64,000 nucleotides of DNA from an archaeon. Its GTDB lineage: Archaea > Nanobdellota > Nanobdellia > CSSed11-243R1. Below the pieces are notes generated by a model. That model made no database searches, had not been told where the DNA came from, and saw nothing but the letters and a program-made list of their open reading frames with translations. Each line of letters begins with the position of its first letter. Positions within the stretch are counted from its first letter, which is position 1. Positions 7,722 through 55,099 of the stretch are shown in pieces. The DNA lies in the NCBI GenBank assembly GCA_024277205.1, contig JAJRVP010000013.1:8735-72734 (forward strand), read 5' to 3'. A program made the position numbers and the translations under genes.

Positions 7722-7723
7722 CC

Positions 7724-7744
7724 TTTCTCTTTATAAAAGAGAAA
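7724..7744 (+). promoter_or_regulatory. perfect 9-bp hairpin (TTTCTCTTT-ATA-AAAGAGAAA) embedding a TATA-like TTTATAAAAG between S12 and S7
   Basis: Inverted repeat read directly from the sequence; could be an intrinsic terminator-like hairpin and/or an S7 promoter element. Confidence 0.3.
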
Positions 7745-7779
7745 CGTTAGCGAAAGAGAAAATTTTCAGAAAGCAGGGG

Positions 7780-8379
<600 letters not shown>

Positions 8380-8431
8380 TTATAAATTCTTTCTTTTTCG
8401 TGCAGGTTTTTCTTTTTAAGAAAAATGTAGA

Positions 8432-14377: not shown

Positions 14378-14407
14378 TTCTTTCTTTTTAATCTCTTTTC
14401 TTTTGGT
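14378..14407 (+). terminator. pyrimidine/T-rich tract after tuf (candidate archaeal oligo-T terminator)
   Basis: tttctttctttttaatctcttttcttttgg immediately after the tuf stop. Confidence 0.3.
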
Positions 14408-14494
14408 AAAGCTTTTTCTTCCTAAGAGAACTGTTTTTTGATAAAGTTTATTAATAAGTGAGGCATATACTATGTAATCTTTTGGGGTGGTAAA

Positions 14495-39773: not shown

Positions 39774-40883
39774 ATGGGGCCCTACAAAGTCGATACTAAA
39801 CAAAAAGTTATTATTTATAAAGGGAATAAATTATTTCCTAAAACAACAAAAATAGTTGGTATTTGCGCACCAGATCTATCTCGTAGGCATTTGGATTTAA
39901 AAGAACAAAAAAGATTTGCAGCATTAATTCGAATTTATGGAGTGATTCATAAATATGTAAGTGAATTTATGGAAGCGGAGGGGGTAGTCCTTTTTGATTT
40001 ACCAATAACAACCAGGATGATATCCTCACCAGGTGCTTTAACAGGAACTATAATTTCTGATGTGGATCCGTTTAAAATAAAATTCTTTGATAACGACGTA
40101 TTTTTAACACAATCTTCACAATTATATCTAGAATTTGCAATAACGTGTCCTGGGATAAACCAAGTGTACTGTTGGGACAAAAGTTTTAGAAGGGAAAGAG
40201 CCGATTTTAGGCACTTACCAGAATTTACTCACATAGAATATGAAGGAAATATTGACTTCGAACAGAATTTAGAGTTGCAAGAACGATTTTTAAAATATAT
40301 CGTTCATTCTTTATTGAGATATAACAAAGAGGAATTGGGCACATTCATTACAGAAGAAGATATGGCCCAATTGCAAAAATTAACACAATTAAAAAGATTC
40401 AAAAGGATAACCTTTCATGATGCGTTCAAGATTCTCTATGAATATACGAAAGATGAAAAATATAAAACTCCAACAATCAATAATTTTGGGGCATACGAAG
40501 AGATATTACTTACTGAATTAATGGGTAATGAGCCTGTTTTTGTGACGAATTACATAGGGGATGAAGTTGCTTTCTATCATGCTAATATGAAAGAGAACCC
40601 ATCTCTTGTGATGAATGCAGATTTGTTGTTTCCGGGGTATGGAGAATTAATAGGTAGTGGGCAAAGAGTTAATACCAGGGAAGAAACTTTGGCAAAGGCT
40701 AAACACTTCAAACTTAACATAGATGATTATCAGGCATATATAGATTCTAGAGATCCCATAAATCCCAAAATTCATTCTGGATGGGGAATGGGAATCGAAA
40801 GATTCCTACAATGTATTCTCAAGTTACCTTATATCTGGGAAGCTAAAGTTTTTCCGAGAGTAGATAATTCAAATAGACCGTAG
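39774..40883 (+). CDS. class IIb aminoacyl-tRNA-synthetase catalytic core without anticodon-binding domain (archaeal AsnA-type asparagine synthetase-like)
   Basis: Motif 2 FRRERADFRHLPEFTHIEYE and motif 3 GMGIERFLQCIL...FPR typical of AsnRS/AspRS; no N-terminal OB fold; 369 aa. Confidence 0.7.
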   Translation: MGPYKVDTKQKVIIYKGNKLFPKTTKIVGICAPDLSRRHLDLKEQKRFAALIRIYGVIHKYVSEFMEAEGVVLFDLPITTRMISSPGALTGTIISDVDPFKIKFFDNDVFLTQSSQLYLEFAITCPGINQVYCWDKSFRRERADFRHLPEFTHIEYEGNIDFEQNLELQERFLKYIVHSLLRYNKEELGTFITEEDMAQLQKLTQLKRFKRITFHDAFKILYEYTKDEKYKTPTINNFGAYEEILLTELMGNEPVFVTNYIGDEVAFYHANMKENPSLVMNADLLFPGYGELIGSGQRVNTREETLAKAKHFKLNIDDYQAYIDSRDPINPKIHSGWGMGIERFLQCILKLPYIWEAKVFPRVDNSNRP

Positions 40884-44246: not shown

Positions 44247-46793
44247 GTGATTAAAATGGAATCTGATAAAAAGAGTTTTTATTTAGTGTTTGCGTATCCT
44301 ACTGCATCCGGTACTGCTCATGTAGGGCACATGAGGTCTTATACTTTTCCTGATATAATCGCCAGATATCAACGTCTGAAGGGAAAAAATGTTTTTTTTC
44401 CATCAGGATTACATGCTACAGGGGTAGATTGTGAGAATCTGTTTCAGAATTTTAAAGAGAATCCAAAAATCTGTGAAAAATATGGTTTAAACGTGGAAGA
44501 TTTGGCAGAAATAAATTCGCCATTTGATCTTGTTAAATACCTAGAACGTCGCTTTAAAAAATCATTCAAGGATTATAACTTAAGTTTAGATTATGATTGT
44601 TTTGTAACCACTGTAGATGAACCGTATAAACGATTTATTCAATGGCAAATTAAAAAATTAAGAGAAAAAGGGTATATAATAAAAAAAAACCATAGACTTC
44701 CTTGGTGCCCAAATTGTGAACACACAGTATCTTTGGATCCTGCAGAGGCAGATCTTAAATTTGGAGGTACTGCTAGAATTGTAGATTATGCATTAATTAA
44801 ATTCGCAGTTGATAATGAAGATAATGTTTTTGCCCCCATAGGTACATTACGTTCAGAAACTATCTTTGGTGCTACAAATCTTTGGATTTCTAAAAATACA
44901 GAATATATAAAAACAAAAATAAATGGAGAATACTGGATAATTTCAAAAGAAGCATTAGCTAATTTGAGAGTCTATGATAACAATATCTCTATTGAAGAAA
45001 AAATTGATGCTTCCGAATTAGAAAGATTGACTGTAATAAATCCAGTTAACTTGGAAAGATTACCAATAATAGCAACAGATTTTGTAAAACCTGAAGAAGC
45101 AACAGGAGTAGTTATGTCTGTGCCCGCTCATGATCCTTATGATTTCATAAATGTTAAAAAATTTTTACCAGATGCGAATATTAAAATTGTTGTTAATACT
45201 AAAAAAACATTAGAAGAATTAATCGATGAATCCAAACAAACAGAAAAGGAATTGGAACAAATACTAAAAAAACATTATTCGGAAGAAAACAGAGGGACTA
45301 TGTTGGAATTCACAGGAAAATATGCTGGGATGAAAGCTTCAGAAGCAAGAAAAGAGTTGATTTCTGATCTAATCAAAATGGGCAAATGTGATATTCTACC
45401 TACTTTATCTGAACCAGTTAGATGTAGATGTGGGACTGATGTCACAATAAAAATAGTTAAAGGACAATGGTTTATAGATTATAGCAATCCAAAATGGAAG
45501 AAAAAGACTAAACATCTTTGTGAAGGTATCCAAACATATCCAAATGATTACAAAGATGAACTTCTAAATCATATCATTGATTGGATAGATGCAAGACCAT
45601 GCACAAGAAAACACGGCATGGGAACGGAATTTCCTTTAGAAGAGGGGTGGTTAGTAGAAGCACTTGCAGATAGTACAATGTATATGGCTTTTTTCCCAAT
45701 AATGAAGTATTACAACAATGGTAAATTAAAGATAGAAAACCTCACCGACGAATTTTTTGATTATTTACTTTTAGATAAAGGGGAGGTTGATACTGTTTCA
45801 AGTAATACAGGATTACCTAAAGAAACACTGTTGGAAATAAAAGATTTTTTTGAGGAAGTATACCCACTTGATCTAAATGCGGGTGGTATAGAACATAAAG
45901 CAGTTCATTTTCCATTTTTCTTATTTACTCACGCTGCTTTGTTAGATGAAAAATATTTTCCAAAATCCATTTTCCTAAATTGGCATGTTGTAGTTGAAGG
46001 GGAAAAGATGAGTAAAAGTAAGGGGAATGTGGTATTTTGGGATGATTTAATTAAACGCTATAAAAATGATCAGATAAGATATTATATAACTGCATCCACT
46101 AACCAATGGAGTAATTTCGACTGGCAAGAGAAAGAGTTAGTCGCTTATGCTAATAGGTATAATAAGCTTGTTAGCAACATTGAGGATATTTTAGAAAGGG
46201 TGGAACATTTAGATAAAATATCTGATAAGGACCATATAGATGAATGGCTTTTATCAAAACAGGATACGTTTATTAATGAGGCAACAAAAAACATGGAAAA
46301 TTATAACTTGAGAAACGTTCTCCATATTGTAGCATATGAGATGACAGAAACAATTAATTGGTATTTAGAGCGTGGTGGGTCAAATAAAGAAGTAGCGGAA
46401 GGATTTGTTTTTAATCAATTAGCTATGCTGACACCATTCTTGCCAGAAACTGTTGAAGATCTTAGTAAGAGTGTAAATTTGAGTATAGATCACTGGCCAG
46501 AATCCAACGGTGTCCAAAATAAAAAAATAGAAATGATAGAGGATTCAATTAAAAAAACAATAGAAGATATAAACAATGTTAAACGCATAAGCTCTGGCGA
46601 ACATCAAAGGTGTATACTTTATGTTGTTAGTGAAGTAGAGAAAAAAGTGTATGAATCTGCATTGCCATTGATAAAAGATAAAGTTGGTATCCCCGAAGTA
46701 ATGGTTTATCAGGTAAACGAAAAGAATGTTGAAGATCCTTTGGAAAAATCCAAAAAAGCAAAATTTTGTAGGCCGGGATTATTTTTGGATTGA
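44247..46793 (+). CDS. leuS: leucyl-tRNA synthetase, archaeal/eukaryal type, short form (848 aa)
   Basis: HIGH-type motif (PTASGTAHVGHM), KMSKS (KMSKSKGN); N-terminus strongly LeuRS-like; shorter than typical archaeal LeuRS (about 950 aa). Confidence 0.8.
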   Translation: MIKMESDKKSFYLVFAYPTASGTAHVGHMRSYTFPDIIARYQRLKGKNVFFPSGLHATGVDCENLFQNFKENPKICEKYGLNVEDLAEINSPFDLVKYLERRFKKSFKDYNLSLDYDCFVTTVDEPYKRFIQWQIKKLREKGYIIKKNHRLPWCPNCEHTVSLDPAEADLKFGGTARIVDYALIKFAVDNEDNVFAPIGTLRSETIFGATNLWISKNTEYIKTKINGEYWIISKEALANLRVYDNNISIEEKIDASELERLTVINPVNLERLPIIATDFVKPEEATGVVMSVPAHDPYDFINVKKFLPDANIKIVVNTKKTLEELIDESKQTEKELEQILKKHYSEENRGTMLEFTGKYAGMKASEARKELISDLIKMGKCDILPTLSEPVRCRCGTDVTIKIVKGQWFIDYSNPKWKKKTKHLCEGIQTYPNDYKDELLNHIIDWIDARPCTRKHGMGTEFPLEEGWLVEALADSTMYMAFFPIMKYYNNGKLKIENLTDEFFDYLLLDKGEVDTVSSNTGLPKETLLEIKDFFEEVYPLDLNAGGIEHKAVHFPFFLFTHAALLDEKYFPKSIFLNWHVVVEGEKMSKSKGNVVFWDDLIKRYKNDQIRYYITASTNQWSNFDWQEKELVAYANRYNKLVSNIEDILERVEHLDKISDKDHIDEWLLSKQDTFINEATKNMENYNLRNVLHIVAYEMTETINWYLERGGSNKEVAEGFVFNQLAMLTPFLPETVEDLSKSVNLSIDHWPESNGVQNKKIEMIEDSIKKTIEDINNVKRISSGEHQRCILYVVSEVEKKVYESALPLIKDKVGIPEVMVYQVNEKNVEDPLEKSKKAKFCRPGLFLD

Positions 46794-46797
46794 TAAA

Positions 46798-47313
46798 ATG
46801 GAATTTATATATGAAAAAAAGGTATTCAGGATTGATAGAGAAGTATATGCTACTATCTGCGATTTTTTTGAAAGTTATTCTTTTTATCGAATAAATGAGA
46901 TATTCATTATTCCTAAATCAATAAAAAATAGGAGGTCTCAGATTAATAGGATGCGAGTAGAAACTAACCACCTAAGATATCCAGTTAATGTAAAAATTAA
47001 TGAACGTGGTAATTTAAGGGAGTATTATATAAGAAGTTTTGGTTCTGATTTCAATCTTGTTTTATTTGAATGGTATGAAACTTGGGATAAACCATTTAGA
47101 GTTTATTCGTTGGGTAAGGGACTTTATAATAACAGAGAAGTGGCATTACTGGCATTAGCCCAAGCTTTTGGAGAAAAAGAGAAACTTATTGTTTTGGCAG
47201 ATGAATTAAAAAAGAAGGGTGAAAATTTATTTAGTGAACTAGAAATAACCATCTCCACAGAATTTCATTCATCATGTTTAAGAATTGCGGGCGTGGTTCA
47301 AGATGAATATTGA
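46798..47313 (+). CDS. hypothetical protein (about 171 aa from MEFIY)
   Basis: ORF immediately after the LeuRS stop; could be a split C-terminal module or unrelated. Confidence 0.4.
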   Translation: MEFIYEKKVFRIDREVYATICDFFESYSFYRINEIFIIPKSIKNRRSQINRMRVETNHLRYPVNVKINERGNLREYYIRSFGSDFNLVLFEWYETWDKPFRVYSLGKGLYNNREVALLALAQAFGEKEKLIVLADELKKKGENLFSELEITISTEFHSSCLRIAGVVQDEY

Positions 47314-48535
47314 GGGTAAACTTAAAGAAATGAAAAAAACACTAGAATTGGCTGAAGTAATTGATCTTGGGGGATATGGTAAGGGACTGCCCCTATGGCT
47401 GCCTTATGGGTTAAAAATTGCTGAAAGGATAAATGACTTATTTATTGCTCACTTACAAAAAAAATTAGATTTTGAAATTATAGATCACCCAAATCTAATC
47501 CCTCTTGAGGAATATTCCTCATTATTTGATAAAGTTGGTTTTGAAAATGTTTATGTTCTGGAAGGAGAGAAAAAGTATGTATTACGGCCAGATACACTAC
47601 AATTCAATTTCGAATATATTCTTCAAAAAGATATAAATGCAGCCTTATCTATTTCTTCTGGATTCAGAGTAGAAACAGGGATTACTGTTCCTCTTTTTAG
47701 GGATAGGCATATTTGGCCCTTTATTCAATTCAATAGTATGTGTGATAATACTGATCTAGAAAATTTGTTACAAAAGAATGTATCTGCTCTTGCCGAACTT
47801 TTTGAAGACATGTGTTTCCCATATTTCTTTGTTGATAGTGGTAAAAAGAGGAATTATGCGGGAAATCAAATAAATGGTATGACATTTATGGAAAGTGGGG
47901 AACTAACAATAATTTCGATGACGTATGTTCTATCAAATCTCTTTTCTGAACATTTTGGTGTCCCAAATAAGAAGATGATAGATTCGGGTTATACTGAAAA
48001 ATTAGTTGGTATGTTAGCTATTCTTCACAGAGATGAAAATGGACTTATTCTTCCAAGTAAAATTGCGCCCTACAACATAGTTTGTTTTTCACGGGAAGGT
48101 AATATTCATCCAGATATTAAGGAGATGTTGAATAGTACCTCTTTTAGGATTTACTATGACGAACAAGAGGATAAAATAAAAAGGAAGTTTAAAAGATGGA
48201 TTAGGAAGGGCACCAATATTATTTTACTGTGCGAAAATGATAAAATTGTAAAAGTTGTTAAAAGGTATAATGATTCCTCAGAGGAATTTAAGAATGTAGG
48301 TAGGTTTGAGCAGATCTTAAAAGAAAATGACGATTTTCTTAAGAATAGATGTATTCATTTAATTGAAAGTTTGTCAGATAGATCTAAAGAACCGTATATT
48401 GCTAGTCTTTGTGATGGATGTGCTGAAAATAAAAAAGTTTTTGGGAGAATATATCCAGAAAAAAAAGAAAAATGTGAATTCTGTGGAAAAGAAGGAGTTA
48501 AATACTTAGTTACAAATGTGTCAAGAATATACTAA
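47285..48535 (+). CDS. truncated/divergent class IIa aaRS paralog, ProRS-like (416 aa) with C-terminal Zn ribbon and terminal Tyr
   Basis: ProRS-like motif-2 region (FRVETGITVPLFRDRHIWPF), motif-3/anticodon-domain junction (LILPSKIAPYNIV), C-terminal CDGC...CEFC and final ...RIY as in archaeal-type ProRS. Confidence 0.5.
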   Translation: MRAWFKMNIEGKLKEMKKTLELAEVIDLGGYGKGLPLWLPYGLKIAERINDLFIAHLQKKLDFEIIDHPNLIPLEEYSSLFDKVGFENVYVLEGEKKYVLRPDTLQFNFEYILQKDINAALSISSGFRVETGITVPLFRDRHIWPFIQFNSMCDNTDLENLLQKNVSALAELFEDMCFPYFFVDSGKKRNYAGNQINGMTFMESGELTIISMTYVLSNLFSEHFGVPNKKMIDSGYTEKLVGMLAILHRDENGLILPSKIAPYNIVCFSREGNIHPDIKEMLNSTSFRIYYDEQEDKIKRKFKRWIRKGTNIILLCENDKIVKVVKRYNDSSEEFKNVGRFEQILKENDDFLKNRCIHLIESLSDRSKEPYIASLCDGCAENKKVFGRIYPEKKEKCEFCGKEGVKYLVTNVSRIY

Positions 48536-48539
48536 AGAA

Positions 48540-48724
48540 AGCCTCGGGAGGGACTTTCACGCACCCACGGAAATTCTTTCCGTGCACGCTTTCTTTTTAA
48601 GAAAGGGTGCTTTCGAACCCTCGACCCCCAGCTTACAAGGCTGGTGCTCTGGCCAATTGCTCCAACACCTTCTTTTGGTGCAGCTTTTCTTCCAAAGAAA
48701 AGGTGCTAGCTGAGCTACCGAGGC
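48540..48724 (-). tRNA. tRNA-Thr (anticodon UGU) with two introns (D-loop and T-loop)
   Basis: Minus-strand hand fold: acceptor GCCTCGG/CCGAGGC, D-stem GCTC/GAGC, anticodon arm CCAGC-CTTGTAA-GCTGG, T-stem GAGGG/CCCTC; about 50-nt insertions interrupt the D-loop and T-loop. Confidence 0.65.
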
Positions 48725-48797
48725 TTTTGTGTACTTTCCGTACACGCTTTTTCAAAGGGTGTAATTATTTAAATATTTTGATTGTATTCTTATTTTA

Positions 48798-49022
48798 ATG
48801 AAAATAAAACCTTTTGGAACAAGAGATATAATCAGAATTGTTATAACTTTGATAATAACATTGCTTGTTGGCATTTTTGTTGCACCAATTCAATCTTGGG
48901 TTTTAATATTGGCAATAGGAGTTTTAATCTATACTCTTTTACTTGAATTAATTAAATTTTATGCAGGCCTAAAAAATTTGAGAAAGAAGAAATTTGAAGT
49001 GGCAACTATCCAATTCGAATAA
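48798..49022 (+). CDS. small membrane protein (74 aa)
   Basis: Two predicted TM helices. Confidence 0.35.
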   Translation: MKIKPFGTRDIIRIVITLIITLLVGIFVAPIQSWVLILAIGVLIYTLLLELIKFYAGLKNLRKKKFEVATIQFE

Positions 49023-49200
49023 CTTCCCAACCATTGTCTTTTAACCTACATAGATGAATTGCACCACAAACTTCGCAGAAGTATTTTGTTTCTCCAGTTT
49101 TTTTGTTGATAACCATGTATTCTGCATGTTTTCCACACCCAGGACAGCGCGGAATTATACTGACAATTTTTACATCACTCATCCTTTTATTCACCCACAC
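49006..49200 (-). CDS. small Zn-ribbon protein (64 aa)
   Basis: CPGCG...x19...CEVCG. Confidence 0.4.
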   Translation of the reverse strand: MWVNKRMSDVKIVSIIPRCPGCGKHAEYMVINKKTGETKYFCEVCGAIHLCRLKDNGWEVIRIG

Positions 49201-49202
49201 TT

Positions 49203-49727
49203 ATGCGAAACTTAAAATATTTTAAAAACCTTTCTATGGATATGTCCAATGCACAAACTCACTTAATTGTTGGAACATTAACTTGTCTAACACTAGCATT
49301 TTTCTTATACAAATTTGTACATGTTAATTTGCTTGTTTTATTTGCAGGAGTAGTAATTGGGATTATTGCTTCTGAATTTCCAGATATTGACCATCCAAAA
49401 TCATTACCAAGAAAAGTGCTTAGAGGATTAATGCCTGCATTGATATTATTCATTTTTATCTATCTGTTTTTTGCATGGAGAATTTGGACAAAGAATTTTT
49501 TAATGATTTCACTATTTTTTGCAACACCATTTTTAATTATTTTTTCTTATGAATATTTTATACCAAAACATCGGAGAGCAACCCATAAATGGCCTGGAAT
49601 GGCAATGCTAATTGCAGTTACGATTCCACTTGCATCTGCTGTTGGTTTAGGAATTACAAACTTTTTAATTATTGCATCTTTTGCAGTTCTTGGTTTTTCA
49701 ACACACATTCTTTTGGACCACTTATAA
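49203..49727 (+). CDS. membrane-bound metal-dependent hydrolase (DUF457/YdjM-like), paralog of 34241-34702
   Basis: Multi-TM with FPDIDHPKS motif matching LPDIDHPNS in the paralog. Confidence 0.55.
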   Translation: MRNLKYFKNLSMDMSNAQTHLIVGTLTCLTLAFFLYKFVHVNLLVLFAGVVIGIIASEFPDIDHPKSLPRKVLRGLMPALILFIFIYLFFAWRIWTKNFLMISLFFATPFLIIFSYEYFIPKHRRATHKWPGMAMLIAVTIPLASAVGLGITNFLIIASFAVLGFSTHILLDHL

Positions 49728-50072
49728 TGGGGTTTTCTTGAATTTTTTTAAGAAGTTTTTGTCTTTGTTAAGTCTGATAAACACAGCTAGAATGTGCTTG
49801 CAAAAACCACGCTTTATGCTATGCCAATGGCAGTCACAGTTCCAAGATTCTGGAAATTTTTTTTCACTAAAATATATTACAGAATGGGTCGTATCATATG
49901 TTTTGTCTATGCAGGTGAATCCAATATGTTTTATTGTGATGTAGTCAACTTTGACATCTTCCCACATTCTTTTTGCAGAACTATAACTATTTTTGCTTAT
50001 TTCTTTATTGGATTCTATGCTTTCAATTGAAAGAAATTGGATGTCCATAATCAAAAGTAGTTTTTGCCCCAA
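49722..50072 (-). CDS. SWIM zinc-finger protein
   Basis: CDCHWHSIKRGFCKHILAVF fits the SWIM CxCxnCxH signature. Confidence 0.6.
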   Translation of the reverse strand: MGQKLLLIMDIQFLSIESIESNKEISKNSYSSAKRMWEDVKVDYITIKHIGFTCIDKTYDTTHSVIYFSEKKFPESWNCDCHWHSIKRGFCKHILAVFIRLNKDKNFLKKFKKTPL

Positions 50073-50215
50073 AGCACTATTAATGTAATTCCAAGTATGC
50101 TCATTGCAAAGATTTTTTGTAATGCGCCAACTTTCCCAATAACAGGGATGCTTAATACAGAAAATGCAGCTAAAACTCCAAGTGCAGAACCACCAATATC
50201 TTTTAAACTAATCAT
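50051..50215 (-). CDS. small membrane protein (54 aa), translationally coupled
   Basis: Unlisted ORF MISLKDIGGSALGVLAAFSVLSIPVIGKVGALQKIFAMSILGITLIVLWGKNYF; its ATG overlaps the upstream stop as ATGA. Confidence 0.35.
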   Translation of the reverse strand: MISLKDIGGSALGVLAAFSVLSIPVIGKVGALQKIFAMSILGITLIVLWGKNYF

Positions 50216-51138
50216 TTTTCACCACCTTTTATTCTTTTGATTCCAAGTTCTTCATAAATTGAGTTAACATCCTCTTCAGACATGCTTTTAACAATCCTCT
50301 TTATTTTTTGGATTACTTCAGATTCAGGATAAACTTTTTTCTTTCCCTTTTCCAATTTTTTTAGTTTATCTTTTTTAATCAATTCTTCAAGCATTTTAGT
50401 ATCAATGCCTTCACCCCTTAATGTATTCATCATCTCTCTTAAAGTATAGCCGCGAGACAATCCAAGTTTTAAATATGCTCTTAAATCCTCAAGGGTGGCT
50501 TGTTTTTTCATTATTTTTTTCAAATGTTTTGAATAAATATAAAGTATTAATGCTGCTGAGATTGCAATAACTAAAATTATTAAAACAGGAGTTATATCAT
50601 ATACTTCAACTTCTATTTTTGGGCAGTCAGCAGGACAGTTAAATGATGTTTCACCCAACTCACATATTTCATTACCGCAGAATATTACACCCTCACTTGG
50701 CAGAACACTCATTATAGATGTGCTTGTATCAAAGCCACCAGGATATGTCCAAACACTTATGAATTCTTGGCTTCCTGGCTCTTTTGCTTTTAGAGTATAA
50801 ACAAGTAAAACTTGCGATGGACCTAACCCATCTCTAAAACTCCAATGATATGCTGTTCTTGTTTTTCCCTGATATTGGTAAGAAGGCAAGGATTCAAGAA
50901 CAACAGCATCTTCATCATAATTATACACTTTCCATTCCTCTATTTCCCAACCAAGTGGAACAAATTCAATTACATCAAATGCATTAATTTGTTTTGTTGA
51001 TTTGAATTCAATAGAAACATTAACAGTGTTTGTTACTTCAACAGCACTTGGCATCTCTCTTTTGAACATTACATCTCCAAATGCAATTGGAAGCGCAACT
51101 ATTAAAATCAATGTTATCAATAATAAACGTTTATTCAT
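50212..51138 (-). CDS. single-pass membrane protein with secreted Cys-containing ectodomain and basic cytoplasmic tail
   Basis: Signal peptide, ectodomain with CGNEICELGETSFNCPADC, TM helix (VLIILVIAISAALILYIY), K/E-rich tail. Confidence 0.5.
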   Translation of the reverse strand: MNKRLLLITLILIVALPIAFGDVMFKREMPSAVEVTNTVNVSIEFKSTKQINAFDVIEFVPLGWEIEEWKVYNYDEDAVVLESLPSYQYQGKTRTAYHWSFRDGLGPSQVLLVYTLKAKEPGSQEFISVWTYPGGFDTSTSIMSVLPSEGVIFCGNEICELGETSFNCPADCPKIEVEVYDITPVLIILVIAISAALILYIYSKHLKKIMKKQATLEDLRAYLKLGLSRGYTLREMMNTLRGEGIDTKMLEELIKKDKLKKLEKGKKKVYPESEVIQKIKRIVKSMSEEDVNSIYEELGIKRIKGGEK

Positions 51139-51180
51139 GAATTAATCAAATAGTTGTATTCTTATAAATATTTAGAAAAA

Positions 51181-51401
51181 TGTCGGGGGTGGGACTTTCA
51201 AGCACCCACCAAATTTTTCTTTTGGTGCAGCTTTTCTTTTTAAGAAAAGGTGCTTTTGAACCCACGATCACCTGGTCATGAGCCAGGCATTCTACCAGAT
51301 TGTTCAACTTTCCGTCAACGCTTCGGCGAGACTTCGTCTCGACGCCCAGCGACAGAGTCGCTAGGTGCGCGAAGCGGAAAGGGTTGCTAAACTACCCCGA
51401 C
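51181..51401 (-). tRNA. tRNA-Met (anticodon CAU, elongator-like) with a large D-region intron and a T-loop intron
   Basis: Minus-strand fold: acceptor GTCGGGG/CCCCGAC, anticodon arm CCTGG-CTCATGA-CCAGG, T-stem GTGGG/CCCAC, discriminator A; a GC-rich insertion of about 80 nt in the D region and the conserved T-loop insert of about 50 nt. Confidence 0.55.
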
Positions 51402-51466
51402 ATATTTTGTTATTAAAAAGCATTATCAAAGAATGTTTATAAAAGTTGTTAAAAAATAGGTTTATC

Positions 51467-51784
51467 CTAAAAAGATTTTTTATAGAACTCATTTAATTCA
51501 CGTCTCCATATCTCAACATAACCATTTGCCTCAAGACAATTAAGAATAATCTCTGTTGCTATGCTGGCGTGTCCTAATGAATACGTGTTATTTATGATCT
51601 CTTTAGCACGTTCTTTTCTTGAATATAAATAAAAGTTTATAGCATCTACATTCCTTTCAAGCATCTTCTTTTGTAATTCCAAAATAATCTCATCTAACGT
51701 GTTTTTTTCAAGAAGGAGAGCCTTGTTGTTCTTGTCAACCAAATCTATGAATCTCCTTGCAGTTTCCATCGCAACTTTTTCCAT
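51467..51784 (-). CDS. hypothetical protein (105 aa)
   Basis: ORF only. Confidence 0.4.
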   Translation of the reverse strand: MEKVAMETARRFIDLVDKNNKALLLEKNTLDEIILELQKKMLERNVDAINFYLYSRKERAKEIINNTYSLGHASIATEIILNCLEANGYVEIWRRELNEFYKKSF

Positions 51785-51855
51785 GATTGTGAGAATTAGA
51801 TTTGTTTTAAAAAGATTTATTTAGTTAGAAATATATGTTGGGAAGTACATAAGAA

Positions 51856-52263
51856 TCAAATCAAATGTAATTTGATTTTTTCTGTGATTTCTCTGAACTT
51901 TTCAGATGTGTATGTTTTTGTTTTTTTTATGTTCATTAAATCCTCAAGAGAGTCGCTTTTAAGTTTTGGAAGAAGCCAGACATGAGCATGTGGAACCTCA
52001 TCTCCCAAAACATAAGAGAGAATTTGCTCGGTGCCAAAAGCTTTTCTTATTGCTTTAGCAATCTTTTGGACGACTTTGTAGTATTCGTCTATGTTTGGCA
52101 CATCCCAAACCCACTGAATATGTTCTTTTGGAATCACTAAAACATGTCCTTCTGTAACAGGACGGATTGAAAGAAAGGCAAGAAATTTTTCATCTTCATA
52201 AACTTTGTAAGCGTTTAGTTCTCCTTTTACGATTTTGCAGAATGGGCATTCAATTGTCTTCAT
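51856..52263 (-). CDS. HIT-family hydrolase
   Basis: Histidine triad (VPHAHVWLLP); N-terminal CPFC; 135 aa. Confidence 0.8.
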   Translation of the reverse strand: MKTIECPFCKIVKGELNAYKVYEDEKFLAFLSIRPVTEGHVLVIPKEHIQWVWDVPNIDEYYKVVQKIAKAIRKAFGTEQILSYVLGDEVPHAHVWLLPKLKSDSLEDLMNIKKTKTYTSEKFREITEKIKLHLI

Positions 52264-52816
52264 ATTCTACACCCATCTTCTCAAACAATAATCGTGCGTA
52301 TCCTTTATGGATTATATTTTCCTTTGGCAACTTAAGTTTTTCTATTAATCTAAGAATTCTCTTTTTTGCTTCTTCGCTGTTGTCCGAAATTAATTCAAAC
52401 TCAACAAAATCACCAAGCCCTTCAATTTTATCAAGGTTCACTTCAAACTCATTAAGCTTTCCTTGCTCCCTTGTTTTTACTTTTGAAATAACTTTTACAA
52501 AGCCAAGCTTTTCAAGAATTCTCTCCATGTCTTTTTTGTTTGAGATTTCAGTTTCATATTCTTCCCAAACTCCTTGCTTGCCTGTGAGCAATTTCATAGT
52601 TAGAATTGATTTTTCATTTTCGCTGCGAATTCTGAGAAGAAAGGAGCCAGCTTTTTGTAACTCCATTTCTTTTCCTTTTTGCTTGTAATAGTTATCAACT
52701 TGCTTTTTCGGGCTTCCAAATTTTGCGCCAATAGACTCTAGTTTCTTTTTCACTTCTTCCAAATTTTCAACTTTAACTTTTACTTCGATTTCCAAATTAT
52801 CCCTGTTTGTATCCAA
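52250..52816 (-). CDS. CYTH-domain protein (triphosphate tunnel metalloenzyme / CyaB-like)
   Basis: N-terminal E-x-E-x-K motif (LEIEVKVKV) and later LRIR; 188 aa; overlaps the neighbouring genes at both ends. Confidence 0.7.
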   Translation of the reverse strand: MDTNRDNLEIEVKVKVENLEEVKKKLESIGAKFGSPKKQVDNYYKQKGKEMELQKAGSFLLRIRSENEKSILTMKLLTGKQGVWEEYETEISNKKDMERILEKLGFVKVISKVKTREQGKLNEFEVNLDKIEGLGDFVEFELISDNSEEAKKRILRLIEKLKLPKENIIHKGYARLLFEKMGVEYEDN

Positions 52817-53294
52817 TTTTTCTTAAGAATTCTTTGCGCTCTTTAATTTTGTTTTCATCTTCAATCCCTTTTGGCTTGTTGCCATCAATCACACCAAGAA
52901 TTCCTTTTCCTTGCTCTGTTTCTGCAACAATTACTTCTGTTGGATTTGCAGTTGCTGTAAAAATTCTGCACACTTCGGGTATCATTTTAATCGCATTTAA
53001 AATATTGATTGGGTATCCATTTCGCAAGAAGATTATAAATGTATGCCCAGCCCCAATTTTGTATGCTTGCTCTGCTGCAGCTTTTTCTAGTTCTTCATCA
53101 TTACCTGTATGTCTTATTAGGCAATCTCCAGATGCTTCTACAAAACCAATTCCAAATTTTATATTTGGATTGCAATTGACAATTGCTTCGTATAAGTCTT
53201 CAACAGATTTAATAAAATGTGTTTGTCCAAGAATTAGATTAACATCTTGGGGAGATTCAATTTTTACAATTTTGATTTCCATTTGTTTCACCAA
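52797..53294 (-). CDS. archaeal adenosine-specific-kinase-family (PF04008-like) protein
   Basis: 165 aa; pattern IKIVKIE...GQTHFIKSVEDL...GIGFVEASG...HTGNDEELEKAA...GAGHTFIIFL resembles that conserved archaeal family, called from memory. Confidence 0.45.
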   Translation of the reverse strand: MVKQMEIKIVKIESPQDVNLILGQTHFIKSVEDLYEAIVNCNPNIKFGIGFVEASGDCLIRHTGNDEELEKAAAEQAYKIGAGHTFIIFLRNGYPINILNAIKMIPEVCRIFTATANPTEVIVAETEQGKGILGVIDGNKPKGIEDENKIKERKEFLRKIGYKQG

Positions 53295-53388
53295 ATCTAC
53301 AAAACCATTTTCAATATTAATATTTTCCTTATTTAATAACTACTACTACATAGTAGCATTTATAAATAAGAGTTGTTCTTAGTCAAGT

Positions 53389-53775
53389 ATGAACTCTGCT
53401 CACAAATACACAGAAAAAAGGTATTTGGTTTTAAGCAGAGATGTTATTACTAAATTTGAACCTTGGATGGAAAGAATAATTTCTGGATCTAATTATGATA
53501 AAATTTTGCTCGTAGGCAATGAAGCAATAGATTATAAAAGAGTAGAAATGGTTGGGGAGGATATAAGTAAATCCTTGGATTTAAACAGTTATTCTTTTTC
53601 AGCATCCCCAAACGGGTTTACAATAGGCGGGAATTATTTTTTATTGACAAATCCCTATTTGATTAAAATAAAACCTGACACACTTACTCTTGAAATTATC
53701 AAATATAAAGAAAAGATAGATATTATTAGAGGAGAGGTTGTTAGAACTCTTGAACAAGAAGTAATTTACCCATAA
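53389..53775 (+). CDS. hypothetical protein (128 aa)
   Basis: ORF only; convergent with and overlapping the NTase 3' end. Confidence 0.4.
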   Translation: MNSAHKYTEKRYLVLSRDVITKFEPWMERIISGSNYDKILLVGNEAIDYKRVEMVGEDISKSLDLNSYSFSASPNGFTIGGNYFLLTNPYLIKIKPDTLTLEIIKYKEKIDIIRGEVVRTLEQEVIYP

Positions 53776-54398
53776 TTTTTGATTTGTTTTTTATATACCT
53801 CAACCAGTTCTTTAAAACCATTTTTATTGAGCATATTAAGAGATTCGTTAAACCCCTCATCCCCAAGAATTCCTCTTAAGTATAATACATCAGATATGTG
53901 TTTTGGGTTGTTCCCCTTTCTACATGCTGCAAGTTTGAATCCAAGCCAAATCCATGGGGCTGGCAATTTTAAACCTTGGTAATGCATAGTTCCTTTTTCA
54001 TCAAATAGATAATCTTCAAGTTTGGCTGCATATTTTGGATCTATGCTTTCAAAAATACCCTTCATAAAAAATTCTACAGAGCCGTCGAAATCATCCAATC
54101 TTTTAAAATAAGAACCTTCTGGGGTAACACCAACGCCACAACCAAGATTAGAAAGAAGTTTGTCTTCTAATTTCTCATCATCAGAGAAGATATCCACATC
54201 CCCAGTATCCCTAAAATTGTCTATTTTTACTCCTGTAAAAATGTCTGCATAGCCTACTAATGCAAAGCTTCCAAAAACAATCATGTTCCCATTTTGATAT
54301 TCGCATTTAAGAGATTCAACTACTCTTTCAAATACAGGATAGCTTACTTTCAATCCCATAGTATACTCTTTTAACTCCATATTTATAAATGTTTTCAT
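53766..54398 (-). CDS. minimal nucleotidyltransferase (Pol-beta superfamily) domain protein
   Basis: hG[GS] motif (IVFGSFALVG) followed by the DxD (GDVDIFSDD) signature; 210 aa. Confidence 0.6.
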   Translation of the reverse strand: MKTFINMELKEYTMGLKVSYPVFERVVESLKCEYQNGNMIVFGSFALVGYADIFTGVKIDNFRDTGDVDIFSDDEKLEDKLLSNLGCGVGVTPEGSYFKRLDDFDGSVEFFMKGIFESIDPKYAAKLEDYLFDEKGTMHYQGLKLPAPWIWLGFKLAACRKGNNPKHISDVLYLRGILGDEGFNESLNMLNKNGFKELVEVYKKQIKNYG

Positions 54399-54415
54399 TT
54401 TTTAGTGACTACAGA

Positions 54416-54596
54416 TGGACCTGTCGGGACTTTCAAGCACCCACGAAAGTTTTCTCTTTCGTGCACGTTTCTTTTTAAGAAGGGTGCTTTTGAACCCGAA
54501 ACCTCCCGCAATCAGGAACCTCTTCTTTTAGTAAAGCTTTTCTTTTTAAGAAAAGGTTGTGCCAAGCGGGTGCGCTACCAATTGCGCCACAGGCCC
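54416..54596 (-). tRNA. tRNA-Ala (anticodon GGC) with a canonical anticodon-loop intron and a T-loop intron
   Basis: Minus-strand fold: acceptor GGGCCTG/CAGGTCC giving the G3:U70 Ala identity pair, discriminator A73, D-arm GCGC-AATTGGTA-GCGC, anticodon stem CCCGC/GCGGG with loop TTGGCA interrupted after position 37, T-stem TCGGG/CCCGA with an insert of about 50 nt in the T-loop. Confidence 0.65.
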
Positions 54597-54597
54597 A

Positions 54598-54969
54598 TCA
54601 TACTTTCCAAAAGTAACATTTTTCTTTTTTGCATCTTTCACATCCAAGATCTTCTCTTTTTGTATTGAATAAAGCCCATCTCTCTTCTTTTCGGATGTAT
54701 ACATGCATTCCACCTGAACATTTGTAGACGAAATAGCCGCCCATTTTATTGTAATTTTTGCTGAAAAGTATATCCACTCCATTTATTGTCATTTCAATTG
54801 TTTCTGAGTCATGTTTTTCTACATTTGTTTCAAATGCGTCATCTAATATTTCTGCAATATCTTTCTTTTTTTCATCTGCTCCTTTGTTATTTAGTTCCCT
54901 TTTTTGTTTACATAACGGACAGACACCCCATTCCATTAATGTTCCGCATTTTGGACAAAATAAACTCAT
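54598..54969 (-). CDS. Zn-ribbon protein (123 aa) with RpoM/TFS-like N-terminal ribbon
   Basis: N-terminal CPKCG...CPLC and a C-terminal Cys cluster (CERCKKEKCYFW); sits between two tRNA genes. Confidence 0.5.
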   Translation of the reverse strand: MSLFCPKCGTLMEWGVCPLCKQKRELNNKGADEKKKDIAEILDDAFETNVEKHDSETIEMTINGVDILFSKNYNKMGGYFVYKCSGGMHVYIRKEERWALFNTKREDLGCERCKKEKCYFWKV

Positions 54970-54982
54970 TTTATCACCAAAA

Positions 54983-55099
54983 AGGGCCTGACGGGATTTG
55001 AACCCGCGACCTGCTGGTTAAGAGCCAGCCGCTCTGACCAGACTTTGCCAACCCTTTTCTGTAAACGCTTTTTCCAAAAGGGTTTTGAGCTACAGGCCC
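54983..55099 (-). tRNA. tRNA-Lys (anticodon CUU) with a D-loop intron
   Basis: Minus-strand fold: acceptor GGGCCTG/CAGGCCC, D-stem GCTC/GAGC with a hairpin insert of about 40 nt (AACCCTTTT...AAAAGGGTT), anticodon arm GCTGG-CTCTTAA-CCAGC, T-arm GCGGG-TTCAAAT-CCCGT. Confidence 0.7.

Follow-up and report, generated by a model that had tools for sequence, protein, structure and literature searches.

In the Thermoproteales, similar introns occupy different positions of different tRNAs, a pattern that Fujishima et al. (2010) read as large-scale intron transposition, according to later summaries (PMC4033280, PMC4090602). These sources also record introns at non-canonical sites, 59/60 among them, and as many as three introns in one gene, and state that the mechanism of the transposition is unknown. 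Here we describe a comparable situation in a 64-kb stretch of contig JAJRVP010000013.1 (the window, by which we mean the whole stretch of DNA that was analyzed; AT-rich, 32% GC), in which four tRNA genes carry seven short inserts of 42 to 87 nt at positions 14/15, 15/16, 37/38, and 59/60. Junction geometry, folding, and comparison with orthologues make it highly probable that these inserts are archaeal tRNA introns of the bulge-helix-bulge (BHB) type belonging to one fast-moving family, with splicing itself predicted. As in the Thermoproteales, all introns are BHB-dependent, up to three are found per gene (in a tRNA-Arg gene of a related locus, L001), and gain among related species is rapid. 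Unlike the Thermoproteales, which are Crenarchaeota, the host is a DPANN archaeon of the Nanoarchaeota/Woesearchaeota type with a GC content of 32%, and the core of the introns has copies beyond tRNA genes and in a second phylum. No report of such an extra-tRNA core was found for the Thermoproteales, as known from the later summaries. Intron transposition of the Thermoproteales kind would now extend to a DPANN lineage, and what appears new is that the core is also a dispersed repeat unconnected with introns.

In DPANN lineages, increased disruption of tRNA genes and incomplete tRNA predictions have been linked to the L3 loop of the splicing endonuclease EndA (PMC5829648). The EndA types compared are the broad-specificity epsilon2 enzyme of ARMAN-2 (PMC3239211) and an alpha4 enzyme with the L3 loop (PMC5829648). 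The window resembles these cases in the failure of standard tools on most of its tRNA genes and in the relaxed BHB of its D-loop introns, whereas the two studies treat the enzyme and counts of disrupted genes and describe no conserved intron family or turnover. Split tRNA genes (Nanoarchaeum equitans; Caldiarchaeum model, PMC3293823) are similar in that their disruption sites coincide with known intron positions. In contrast, the four genes of the window are contiguous, with no separate halves and no integrase, and their inserts are far smaller, in the range of tens of bases against kilobases. For the question of how BHB introns are acquired by archaeal tRNA genes, the module described below offers filled and empty sites outside introns, which, with the near-identical mature tRNAs and the short introns, make the source and the mode of the gain testable.

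ARAGORN and Rfam (at gathering thresholds and at E ≤ 1) were run on the whole window. Their sole call was a truncated tRNA-Lys at 54982-55055, and the tRNA-Thr, tRNA-Met, and tRNA-Ala genes (three of the four) were missed. The tRNA sets of such DPANN genomes are therefore expected to be under-called unless multi-intron models are used. The four genes and their inserts, read on the minus strand, are listed below, H/H' denoting the central helix of the BHB. They are seemingly the single copies of these tRNAs within the syntenic region.

48540..48724, minus strand: tRNA-Thr(TGT) gene with two introns; spliced in silico, it yields a 74-nt tRNA-Thr in ARAGORN.
48657..48709, minus strand: Thr D-loop intron at 15/16, 53 nt; relaxed BHB without outer helix, H/H' GCTC/GAGC (4/4 pairs), bulges AGC and AAT.
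48554..48611, minus strand: Thr T-loop intron at 59/60, 58 nt; three-way junction fold, H/H' TTCG/TGAA (4/4), T-stem as outer helix, minimum free energy z = -3.3.
48729..48761, minus strand: module-like stretch CACCCTTTGAAAAAGCGTGTACGGAAAGTACAC in the 5' leader of tRNA-Thr; E = 3.7e-7 with the nhmmer profile of sub-type B, a value that is partly circular, this sequence being one of the four from which the profile was built.
51181..51401, minus strand: tRNA-Met(CAT, elongator) gene with two introns; spliced product of 74 nt, identical to the L122 orthologue.
51300..51386, minus strand: Met D-loop intron at 15/16, 87 nt; H/H' GTTT/GAAC (4/4), with a nested GC-rich insert of 44 nt.
51195..51254, minus strand: Met T-loop intron at 59/60, 60 nt; H/H' TTCA/TGAA (4/4), fold z = -3.8.
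54416..54596, minus strand: tRNA-Ala(GGC) gene with two introns and the G3:U70 pair; with the T-loop insert taken out, ARAGORN recognizes a tRNA-Ala containing an intron of 49 nt.
54511..54559, minus strand: Ala anticodon intron at 37/38, 49 nt; little more than a single module with an adaptor of 12 nt.
54430..54488, minus strand: Ala T-loop intron at 59/60, 59 nt; H/H' TTCA/TGAA (4/4), fold z = -3.6.
54983..55099, minus strand: tRNA-Lys(CTT) gene with one intron, outside the range covered by an earlier sequence-only reading of this DNA; spliced product of 75 nt.
55044..55085, minus strand: Lys D-loop intron at 14/15, 42 nt; H/H' with 3/4 pairs, boundary ambiguous by 1 nt in a run of A.

To define the junctions, 13 genes from the window and its relatives were spliced in silico. 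All gave tRNAs of 73 to 75 nt in ARAGORN, and 11 were fully canonical. The remaining two, both tRNA-Ala, retained one extra base in the anticodon loop at the junction chosen first, the 49-nt intron called by ARAGORN being the correct one. With this intron, the four genes of the window yield canonical products of 74 to 75 nt. The predicted junctions were identical to the corresponding sequences of intron-free orthologues in the D-loops of tRNA-Lys (AGTCTGGTCA) and tRNA-Met (AGTCTGGTA) and in the T-loop (TTCAAAT). All introns conformed to a common register, in which four exon bases ending 2 nt before the 5' cut pair with four intron bases ending 2 nt before the 3' cut (GCTC/GAGC, GTTT/GAAC, TTCR/TGAA). 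The ends of the intron close on themselves, as in GCACCC/GGGTGC, leaving two 3-nt bulges around a 4-bp helix. The central helices of the seven window introns contain 4, 4, 4, 4, 3, 4, and 3 of the 4 possible pairs. Among 22 introns, the predicted register gave a mean of 3.45 pairs out of 4, compared to 1.5-2.2 when slid by 1-3 nt and to 1.77 ± 0.21 for random intron 4-mers, a test that is partly circular since ambiguous splice sites were chosen in part by the BHB rule; the comparison with orthologues is independent of this choice.

The outer helix is complete in the introns at 59/60 and 37/38, where the T-stem or the anticodon stem supplies it. No outer helix is present in the D-loop introns, which adopt the relaxed BHB (HBh') form. 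Three-way junctions are the predicted folds of the T-loop introns (z = -3.3 to -3.8), whose second hairpin displays double-sided compensatory changes (CACGGAAA/TTTCCGTG, CACCAAA/TTTGGTG, and ACGAAAG/CTTTCGT). Because MAFFT placed the Ala copy out of register when aligning the T-loop introns, the covariation was read from individual folds. Rfam, at gathering thresholds and at E ≤ 1, matched no family in the introns of the window, tRNA-Lys being the only match. The possibility that the inserts were guide RNAs (C/D, H/ACA) or other curated RNAs was rejected on the basis of the Rfam result and because no C/D box, K-turn, or H/ACA feature was seen by eye.

All seven introns are variants of one plan based on a module of approximately 37-45 nt. 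The module consists of a hairpin (pyrimidines alone in the 5' arm, purines alone in the 3' arm; for example CTTTTCTT-AAA-AAGAAAAG), a linker of the form C(G)TKYAC(C) (found as CTGCACC, CGTGCAC, CTTTACT, CGTTTAC, and CGTTGAC), and a second purine tract repeating the 3' arm. In the T-loop introns, this second tract belongs to a further hairpin; in the introns of the D-loop and the anticodon, a lengthened tract closes the intron against its 5' end. The module is flanked by short ends, and the last six bases of each intron hold the site-specific 4-nt stretch that pairs with the neighboring exon. The mirror or direct repetition of the two purine tracts was considered as a triplex or mirror-repeat signature; this reading was dropped, some copies being mirror repeats and others direct repeats.

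The sequence-only reading had proposed that the T-loop inserts of tRNA-Thr, tRNA-Met, and tRNA-Ala share a near-identical framework and that a related hairpin core recurs at other intron positions. Both proposals held at the places indicated. The T-loop inserts have in common AGCACC(C)...TTCTTAAAAAGAA...GGGTGCKTGAAAG, with GCACCT instead of GCACCC in tRNA-Met, and the 3' part of the framework, GGTGCKTGAAAGTCCC, is present in three copies compared to 0.42 expected from shuffled sequences, none of which reached three. The core, CCTTTTCTT-N5-AAGAAAAGC, was found in the Thr D-loop, Met T-loop, and Ala anticodon introns. An nhmmer profile of the inserts retrieved the five core-bearing copies of the window at composition-corrected E values of 1e-13 to 1e-19. 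Alignment of all inserts, by all-against-all pairwise local alignment of 34 introns and units, returned a single family: identity reached 92% over 38 nt between Met 59/60 and Thr 15/16 and 100% over 23 nt between Ala 37/38 and Met 59/60. The similarity includes the segments GCACC, GCTGCACC, and GGGTGC, which are not of low complexity, and it is therefore more than AT-rich low complexity. A search for the motif beyond these inserts, within the window, added the tRNA-Lys intron, the leader of tRNA-Thr, and three copies outside tRNA genes.

A homology search with S8e placed the window among DPANN archaea of the Nanoarchaeota/Woesearchaeota type and supplied syntenic loci from five related genomes, whose proteins are 60-93% identical to those of the window. 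The relatives were seen as short loci, in which orthology of the tRNA genes rests on synteny. The intron positions in L122, L125, L126, and L127 are as follows.

tRNA-Lys: window, 14/15; L122, L125, and L126, 37/38; L127, about 30/31 and 59/60.
tRNA-Met: window, 15/16 and 59/60; L122 and L125, one BHB intron past the acceptor stem (about 8/9); L126, 15/16 only; L127, 59/60 only.
tRNA-Thr: window, 15/16 and 59/60; L122, 31/32 and 38/39; L125 and L127, 38/39.
tRNA-Ala: window, 37/38 and 59/60; L122, the same two; L125, 59/60 only; L126, 37/38 only.

Despite these differences, the mature tRNAs are nearly or fully identical across the five related genomes; the mature tRNA-Met of the window and of L122, which have no intron in common, are identical. 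Conversely, the same intron sequence occurs in different tRNAs. A scan of a genome collection with the T-loop framework retrieved one other locus, the tRNA-Arg gene with three introns in L001 (a metagenome-assembled genome, or MAG, labeled 'Nanobdellati archaeon'). Its 59/60 intron is 100% identical over 38 nt to Met 59/60 of the window and its 14/15 intron 95% identical over 39 nt to Lys 14/15. In addition, Ala 59/60 of L122 matches Thr 59/60 of the window (94% over 50 nt), Lys 14/15 of the window matches Thr 38/39 of L122 (88% over 33 nt), and the outer parts of Met 15/16 match Thr 38/39 of L125. In L132, tRNA-Asn carries members of the family in the D-loop and at 59/60, and other relatives have units in the leader (L127) or the trailer (L129) of a tRNA. 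Even where the stem differs in sequence, it retains its pyrimidine/purine asymmetry.

In relatives this close, a given tRNA has its family members elsewhere, and one intron sequence turns up in several tRNAs. Gain, loss, and relocation of the introns have therefore taken place within a short time, much like the intron transposition of the Thermoproteales. Such turnover is what a repeatedly and recently relocating family predicts, and the proposal of the sequence-only reading that a recently propagating, perhaps mobile, intron family inserts at several tRNA positions is largely supported by the family relationship across tRNAs and by the turnover, from which its mobile character is deduced. The case is unusually clean, combining near-identical mature tRNAs, different intron sets at 60-93% protein identity, and introns that are almost wholly made of one module.

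Two further observations were made at these loci. In L125 (18293-18345), a 33-nt unit lies between perfect 9-nt direct repeats, GCCTCGGTA, corresponding to the 5' end of tRNA-Thr, directly 5' of an intact tRNA-Thr gene. Rather than an intron at 9/10, this arrangement may represent an insertion into the leader accompanied by target duplication, and it resembles, in miniature, the direct repeats described for integration (PMC3293823). The tRNA-Met genes of L122 and L125 are preceded by an upstream duplicate of GTCGGGG. Concerning L001, syntenic proteins of the MAG are 57-91% identical to those of the window, and an initial view of this locus as a deep relative, based on a LeuRS only ~40% identical by tblastx, was dropped on that account. 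The LeuRS genes of L001 (997-3450) and of the window (44247-46793), with tblastx identities of ~37-44%, may be different paralogues or xenologues.

Three copies of the module were detected in the window outside tRNA genes.

7722..7765, plus strand: copy in the S12-S7 spacer, directly after the stop codon of rpS12, detected by hairpin census.
8384..8426, minus strand: copy in the 52-nt spacer between the convergent genes pyrG and rpS7; E = 3.9e-5 with the intron-only nhmmer profile.
14390..14431, minus strand: copy downstream of EF-1α; E = 6e-4 with the intron-only profile and 6.9e-7 with the profile of the metagenome unit described below.

The copy adjacent to rpS12 has the architecture CC-TTTCTCTT-TATA-AAGAGAAA-CGTTAGC-GAAAGAGAAAA. 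The S12-S7 spacer measures 63 nt in the window compared to 14 nt in L131 and 4 nt in L132, a difference that points to a lineage-specific insertion. In the 64 kb, perfect pyrimidine/purine hairpins were found at seven loci, including four in introns and two in spacers of the str operon. Two of the intergenic copies of the window are antisense to the neighboring genes. In L131, units are present after rpS7 and after EF-1α, in the orientation opposite to that of the window copies. Downstream of EF-1α in the same locus (7826-8127), a perfect 33-nt direct repeat, comprising the 3' end of EF-1α and half of a hairpin, flanks a segment of ~165 nt, within which lie an AGCACC...GGGTGCT element similar to an intron and a part reminiscent of a tRNA-Thr end; the structure suggests that the module took part in an integration or a duplication.

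A scan of metagenomes with the core pattern retrieved at least 120 contigs. Nearly all of the matches listed carry one discrete unit, AAACCTTTTCTT-N3-AAGAAAAGCTTTACCAAAAGAA, of ~37 nt with sharp boundaries and a variable loop. Its 5' flank, AAACCTT, is under no pairing constraint and is nevertheless 96-99% conserved, only the loop being variable. Sequences flanking the units are mutually unrelated: units follow stop codons, form forward/reverse pairs, tandem arrays, and inverted-repeat composites, or lie at the ends of CRISPR (clustered regularly interspaced short palindromic repeat) arrays, and they are found both ways round relative to neighboring genes. Some of the composites only are surrounded by long inverted repeats, which close them (fold z = -5.2). 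Among the matches listed, only four or five are located in tRNA D-loops; contig L107 (43% GC) has a D-loop intron of this type. A profile built from the unit alone retrieved the introns of the window at E values of about 1e-10 (Ala 37/38 at 1.6e-10), and the unit shares 94% identity over 36 nt with the intron at Ala 37/38. One unit-bearing contig (L021) was assigned to ANME-1 (Methanophagales) on the basis of its PorA, which is 94% identical. In this contig a unit is present upstream of porA, whereas the same site is empty in a related Methanophagales MAG (L130). The module is thus not intron-specific, being also a dispersed intergenic hairpin unit both in the window and in ANME-1-type contigs.

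The unit abuts the ATG of porA in L021, raising the possibility of a promoter. This was rejected as a general explanation, since the loop positions that would form the TATA box vary freely, including to G or C, and since only about 3 of the 120 units listed abut a start codon. In contigs L101, L118, and L009, which contain CRISPR arrays with the repeat GTTTCAATCCTTGTTTTCKTAGACTMTYTTGCAAC, the 37-nt unit directly abuts the array-terminal repeat, and the ATTGAAAC end of the repeat implies that the abutting end is leader-proximal. Rfam returned nothing besides one tRNA for 13 unit-bearing loci, and a literature search with three sub-strings of the unit (12-13 nt) returned no description of it.

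Bacterial hairpin repeats of the REP/BIME kind (repetitive extragenic palindromes and bacterial interspersed mosaic elements) and those resembling miniature inverted-repeat transposable elements (MITE), with REP-RAYT and PATE of IS200/IS605 as examples, are extragenic hairpin units present in high copy number. The ~37-nt unit shares with them a hairpin structure, an extragenic location often directly after stop codons, both orientations, a high copy number, forward/reverse pairs, tandem arrays, and filled or empty orthologous sites (S12-S7 and porA). It differs from them in its archaeal host, in the predicted spliceable introns that copies form inside tRNA genes, and in the lack of a conserved flanking tetranucleotide and of target duplication; no Y1 transposase was found among 30 open reading frames (ORFs) of the window or in the unit-bearing contigs listed. 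We tentatively put forward the idea, as one that has a reasonable though minority chance of being correct, that the DPANN tRNA introns and the 37-nt repeat of ANME-1-type contigs are one promiscuous non-autonomous hairpin element that is mobile within genomes (among the loops of tRNAs, their leaders, and the spacers of highly expressed genes) and has crossed between co-occurring archaeal phyla. If this were true, BHB introns would arise wherever a unit entered a tRNA gene and could pair its ends with the exon at that site, and the intron transposition described in archaea would gain a concrete source.

In the mechanism that we favor, EndA would cut the pre-tRNA in both bulges, an RtcB-type ligase would join the exons, and the intron would be released, probably as a circle. 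Since the D-loop introns have no outer helix, EndA would need to be of the broad-specificity kind. The non-autonomous hairpin unit would most likely spread at the DNA level, and a unit inserted in a tRNA gene would persist only if its ends formed a BHB with the local exon. The site-specific 3' adaptor of each intron argues against simple transplantation of whole excised introns. Observed are the family relationship, the geometry of the junctions, the canonical products, the turnover of positions, the copies outside tRNA genes, and the filled and empty states at two sites outside tRNA genes; the splicing itself, the type of enzyme, and the mode and direction of the spread are inferred.

Several observations weigh against this interpretation, in addition to the partial circularity of the register test. 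The genes encoding EndA and RtcB were found neither in the window nor in the loci fetched from relatives. No transposase or reverse transcriptase was detected among the 30 ORFs of the window scanned against Pfam, and no recurring protein family among the 120 unit-bearing contigs listed. No excess of direct repeats over the shuffled control, such as target-site duplications would produce, was found around 112 units, the 9-nt repeat of L125 being the single exception. Two scans of viral contigs were negative. These negative results speak against a classical transposon. Assignment of the unit to ANME-1 rests on one contig, the others sharing flanking modules and a GC content of ~42%. The orientation of the module inside introns is always that of the tRNA, which would also fit an RNA-level process or selection. 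Finally, the window and L131 carry oppositely oriented units in the same two spacers (after rpS7 and after EF-1α), a hint of selected function more than of random insertion.

The last two points lead to the explanations that compete with a family spreading at the DNA level. The module might be a functional RNA element (protein-binding, stabilizing, or a hairpin for 3'-end formation or termination) that was recruited repeatedly and kept by selection, its similarity among sites reflecting constraint. This would account for the proximity of copies to highly expressed genes (rpS12, rpS7, and EF-1α in the window; rpS7 and EF-1α in L131), the restriction of variation to the loop of the metagenome units beside the conserved 5' flank, the persistence of the pyrimidine/purine asymmetry, and the rarity of perfect hairpins, 6 of the 7 loci of the window being in introns or str-operon spacers. 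It leaves unexplained the different positions of the module in orthologous tRNAs and the S12-S7 and porA sites that are empty in relatives, and neither the two orientations of the unit nor the Rfam result is in its favor. We regard such an element as a somewhat unlikely explanation; it is in any case compatible with mobility, and a selected role as a transcript-end or stability hairpin at highly expressed genes could coexist with it. Transposition at the RNA level, in which an excised circular intron would be reverse-spliced into another tRNA loop and fixed by reverse transcription and recombination, fits the constant sense orientation within introns and the clustering of copies at highly transcribed genes. 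We consider it distinctly unlikely, given the terminal adaptor (H' plus 2 nt), which differs by site and matches the local exon, the two antisense intergenic copies, and the failure to find a reverse transcriptase among the ORFs scanned; a DNA-level process is also favored by reviews (PMC4090602).

Relocation would not be required at all if old 59/60 introns had been homogenized by gene conversion at the shared T-arm. These introns are flanked by near-identical exon sequences (GGTTCRAA and TCCC), and Ala 59/60 of L122 is closer to Thr 59/60 of the window than to Ala 59/60 of the window. However, the homologous flanks amount to merely ~9 and 4 nt, the same core is found at 15/16, 37/38, 38/39, and 59/60 despite different exon flanks, and gene conversion explains neither why some orthologues have 59/60 introns and others lack them nor the copies outside tRNA genes. 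Concerted evolution of this type is thus an unlikely alternative to a relocating family. It is scarcely credible that the similarity is due to chance in AT-rich sequence, or that the inserts are not introns (the genes being pseudogenes or the expansions being retained in the tRNAs). The genome is indeed 32% GC, the arms of the hairpin are homopolymer-like, and TTCTTAAAAAGAA with one mismatch is modestly enriched (8 copies compared to 2.0 expected). A resemblance limited to AT-rich composition, with no shared structure, is contradicted by the segments that are not of low complexity, by composition-corrected E values down to 1e-19, and by the geometry of the junctions, which are precise and yield canonical products with mature sequences identical to those of orthologues, from genes that are apparently the only ones for these tRNAs within the syntenic region.

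The Met D-loop intron and the stretch in the 5' leader of tRNA-Thr represent a related sub-type of the module. The insert nested in the former (51324-51367, minus strand) comprises 44 nt with 68% GC and two hairpins, CCTAGCGAC-TCT-GTCGCTGGG and CGAGAC-GAA-GTCTCG. It is absent from the otherwise matching Thr 38/39 intron of L125 and has no second copy in the window or in any of the fetched loci; a nested intron and a small structured RNA are both conceivable. The leader of tRNA-Thr contains the hairpin GTGTAC-GGAAA-GTACAC and is ~16 nt longer than in L122, L125, and L126, which share the TATA box AAATATTTAAATAAT. Removal of this module via a BHB was considered, and no consistent register was found by eye. 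The module is therefore probably removed together with the leader, a probable substrate of RNase P.

Two ORFs of the window encode atypical proteins resembling aminoacyl-tRNA synthetases. The first (47285-48535, plus strand; 416 residues) has an HGTP anticodon-binding domain as its sole domain match, and the second (39774-40880, plus strand; 369 residues) has a class II (D/K/N) core with no obvious anticodon-binding domain. Between the tRNA-Lys and tRNA-Ala genes lies an ORF encoding a zinc-ribbon protein of 123 residues (54598-54969, minus strand), in the place of which relatives hold a different ORF or none. Its TGA stop codon ends 1 nt before tRNA-Ala, which suggests that the tRNA-Lys gene, this ORF, and the tRNA-Ala gene form a tRNA-ORF-tRNA co-transcript.

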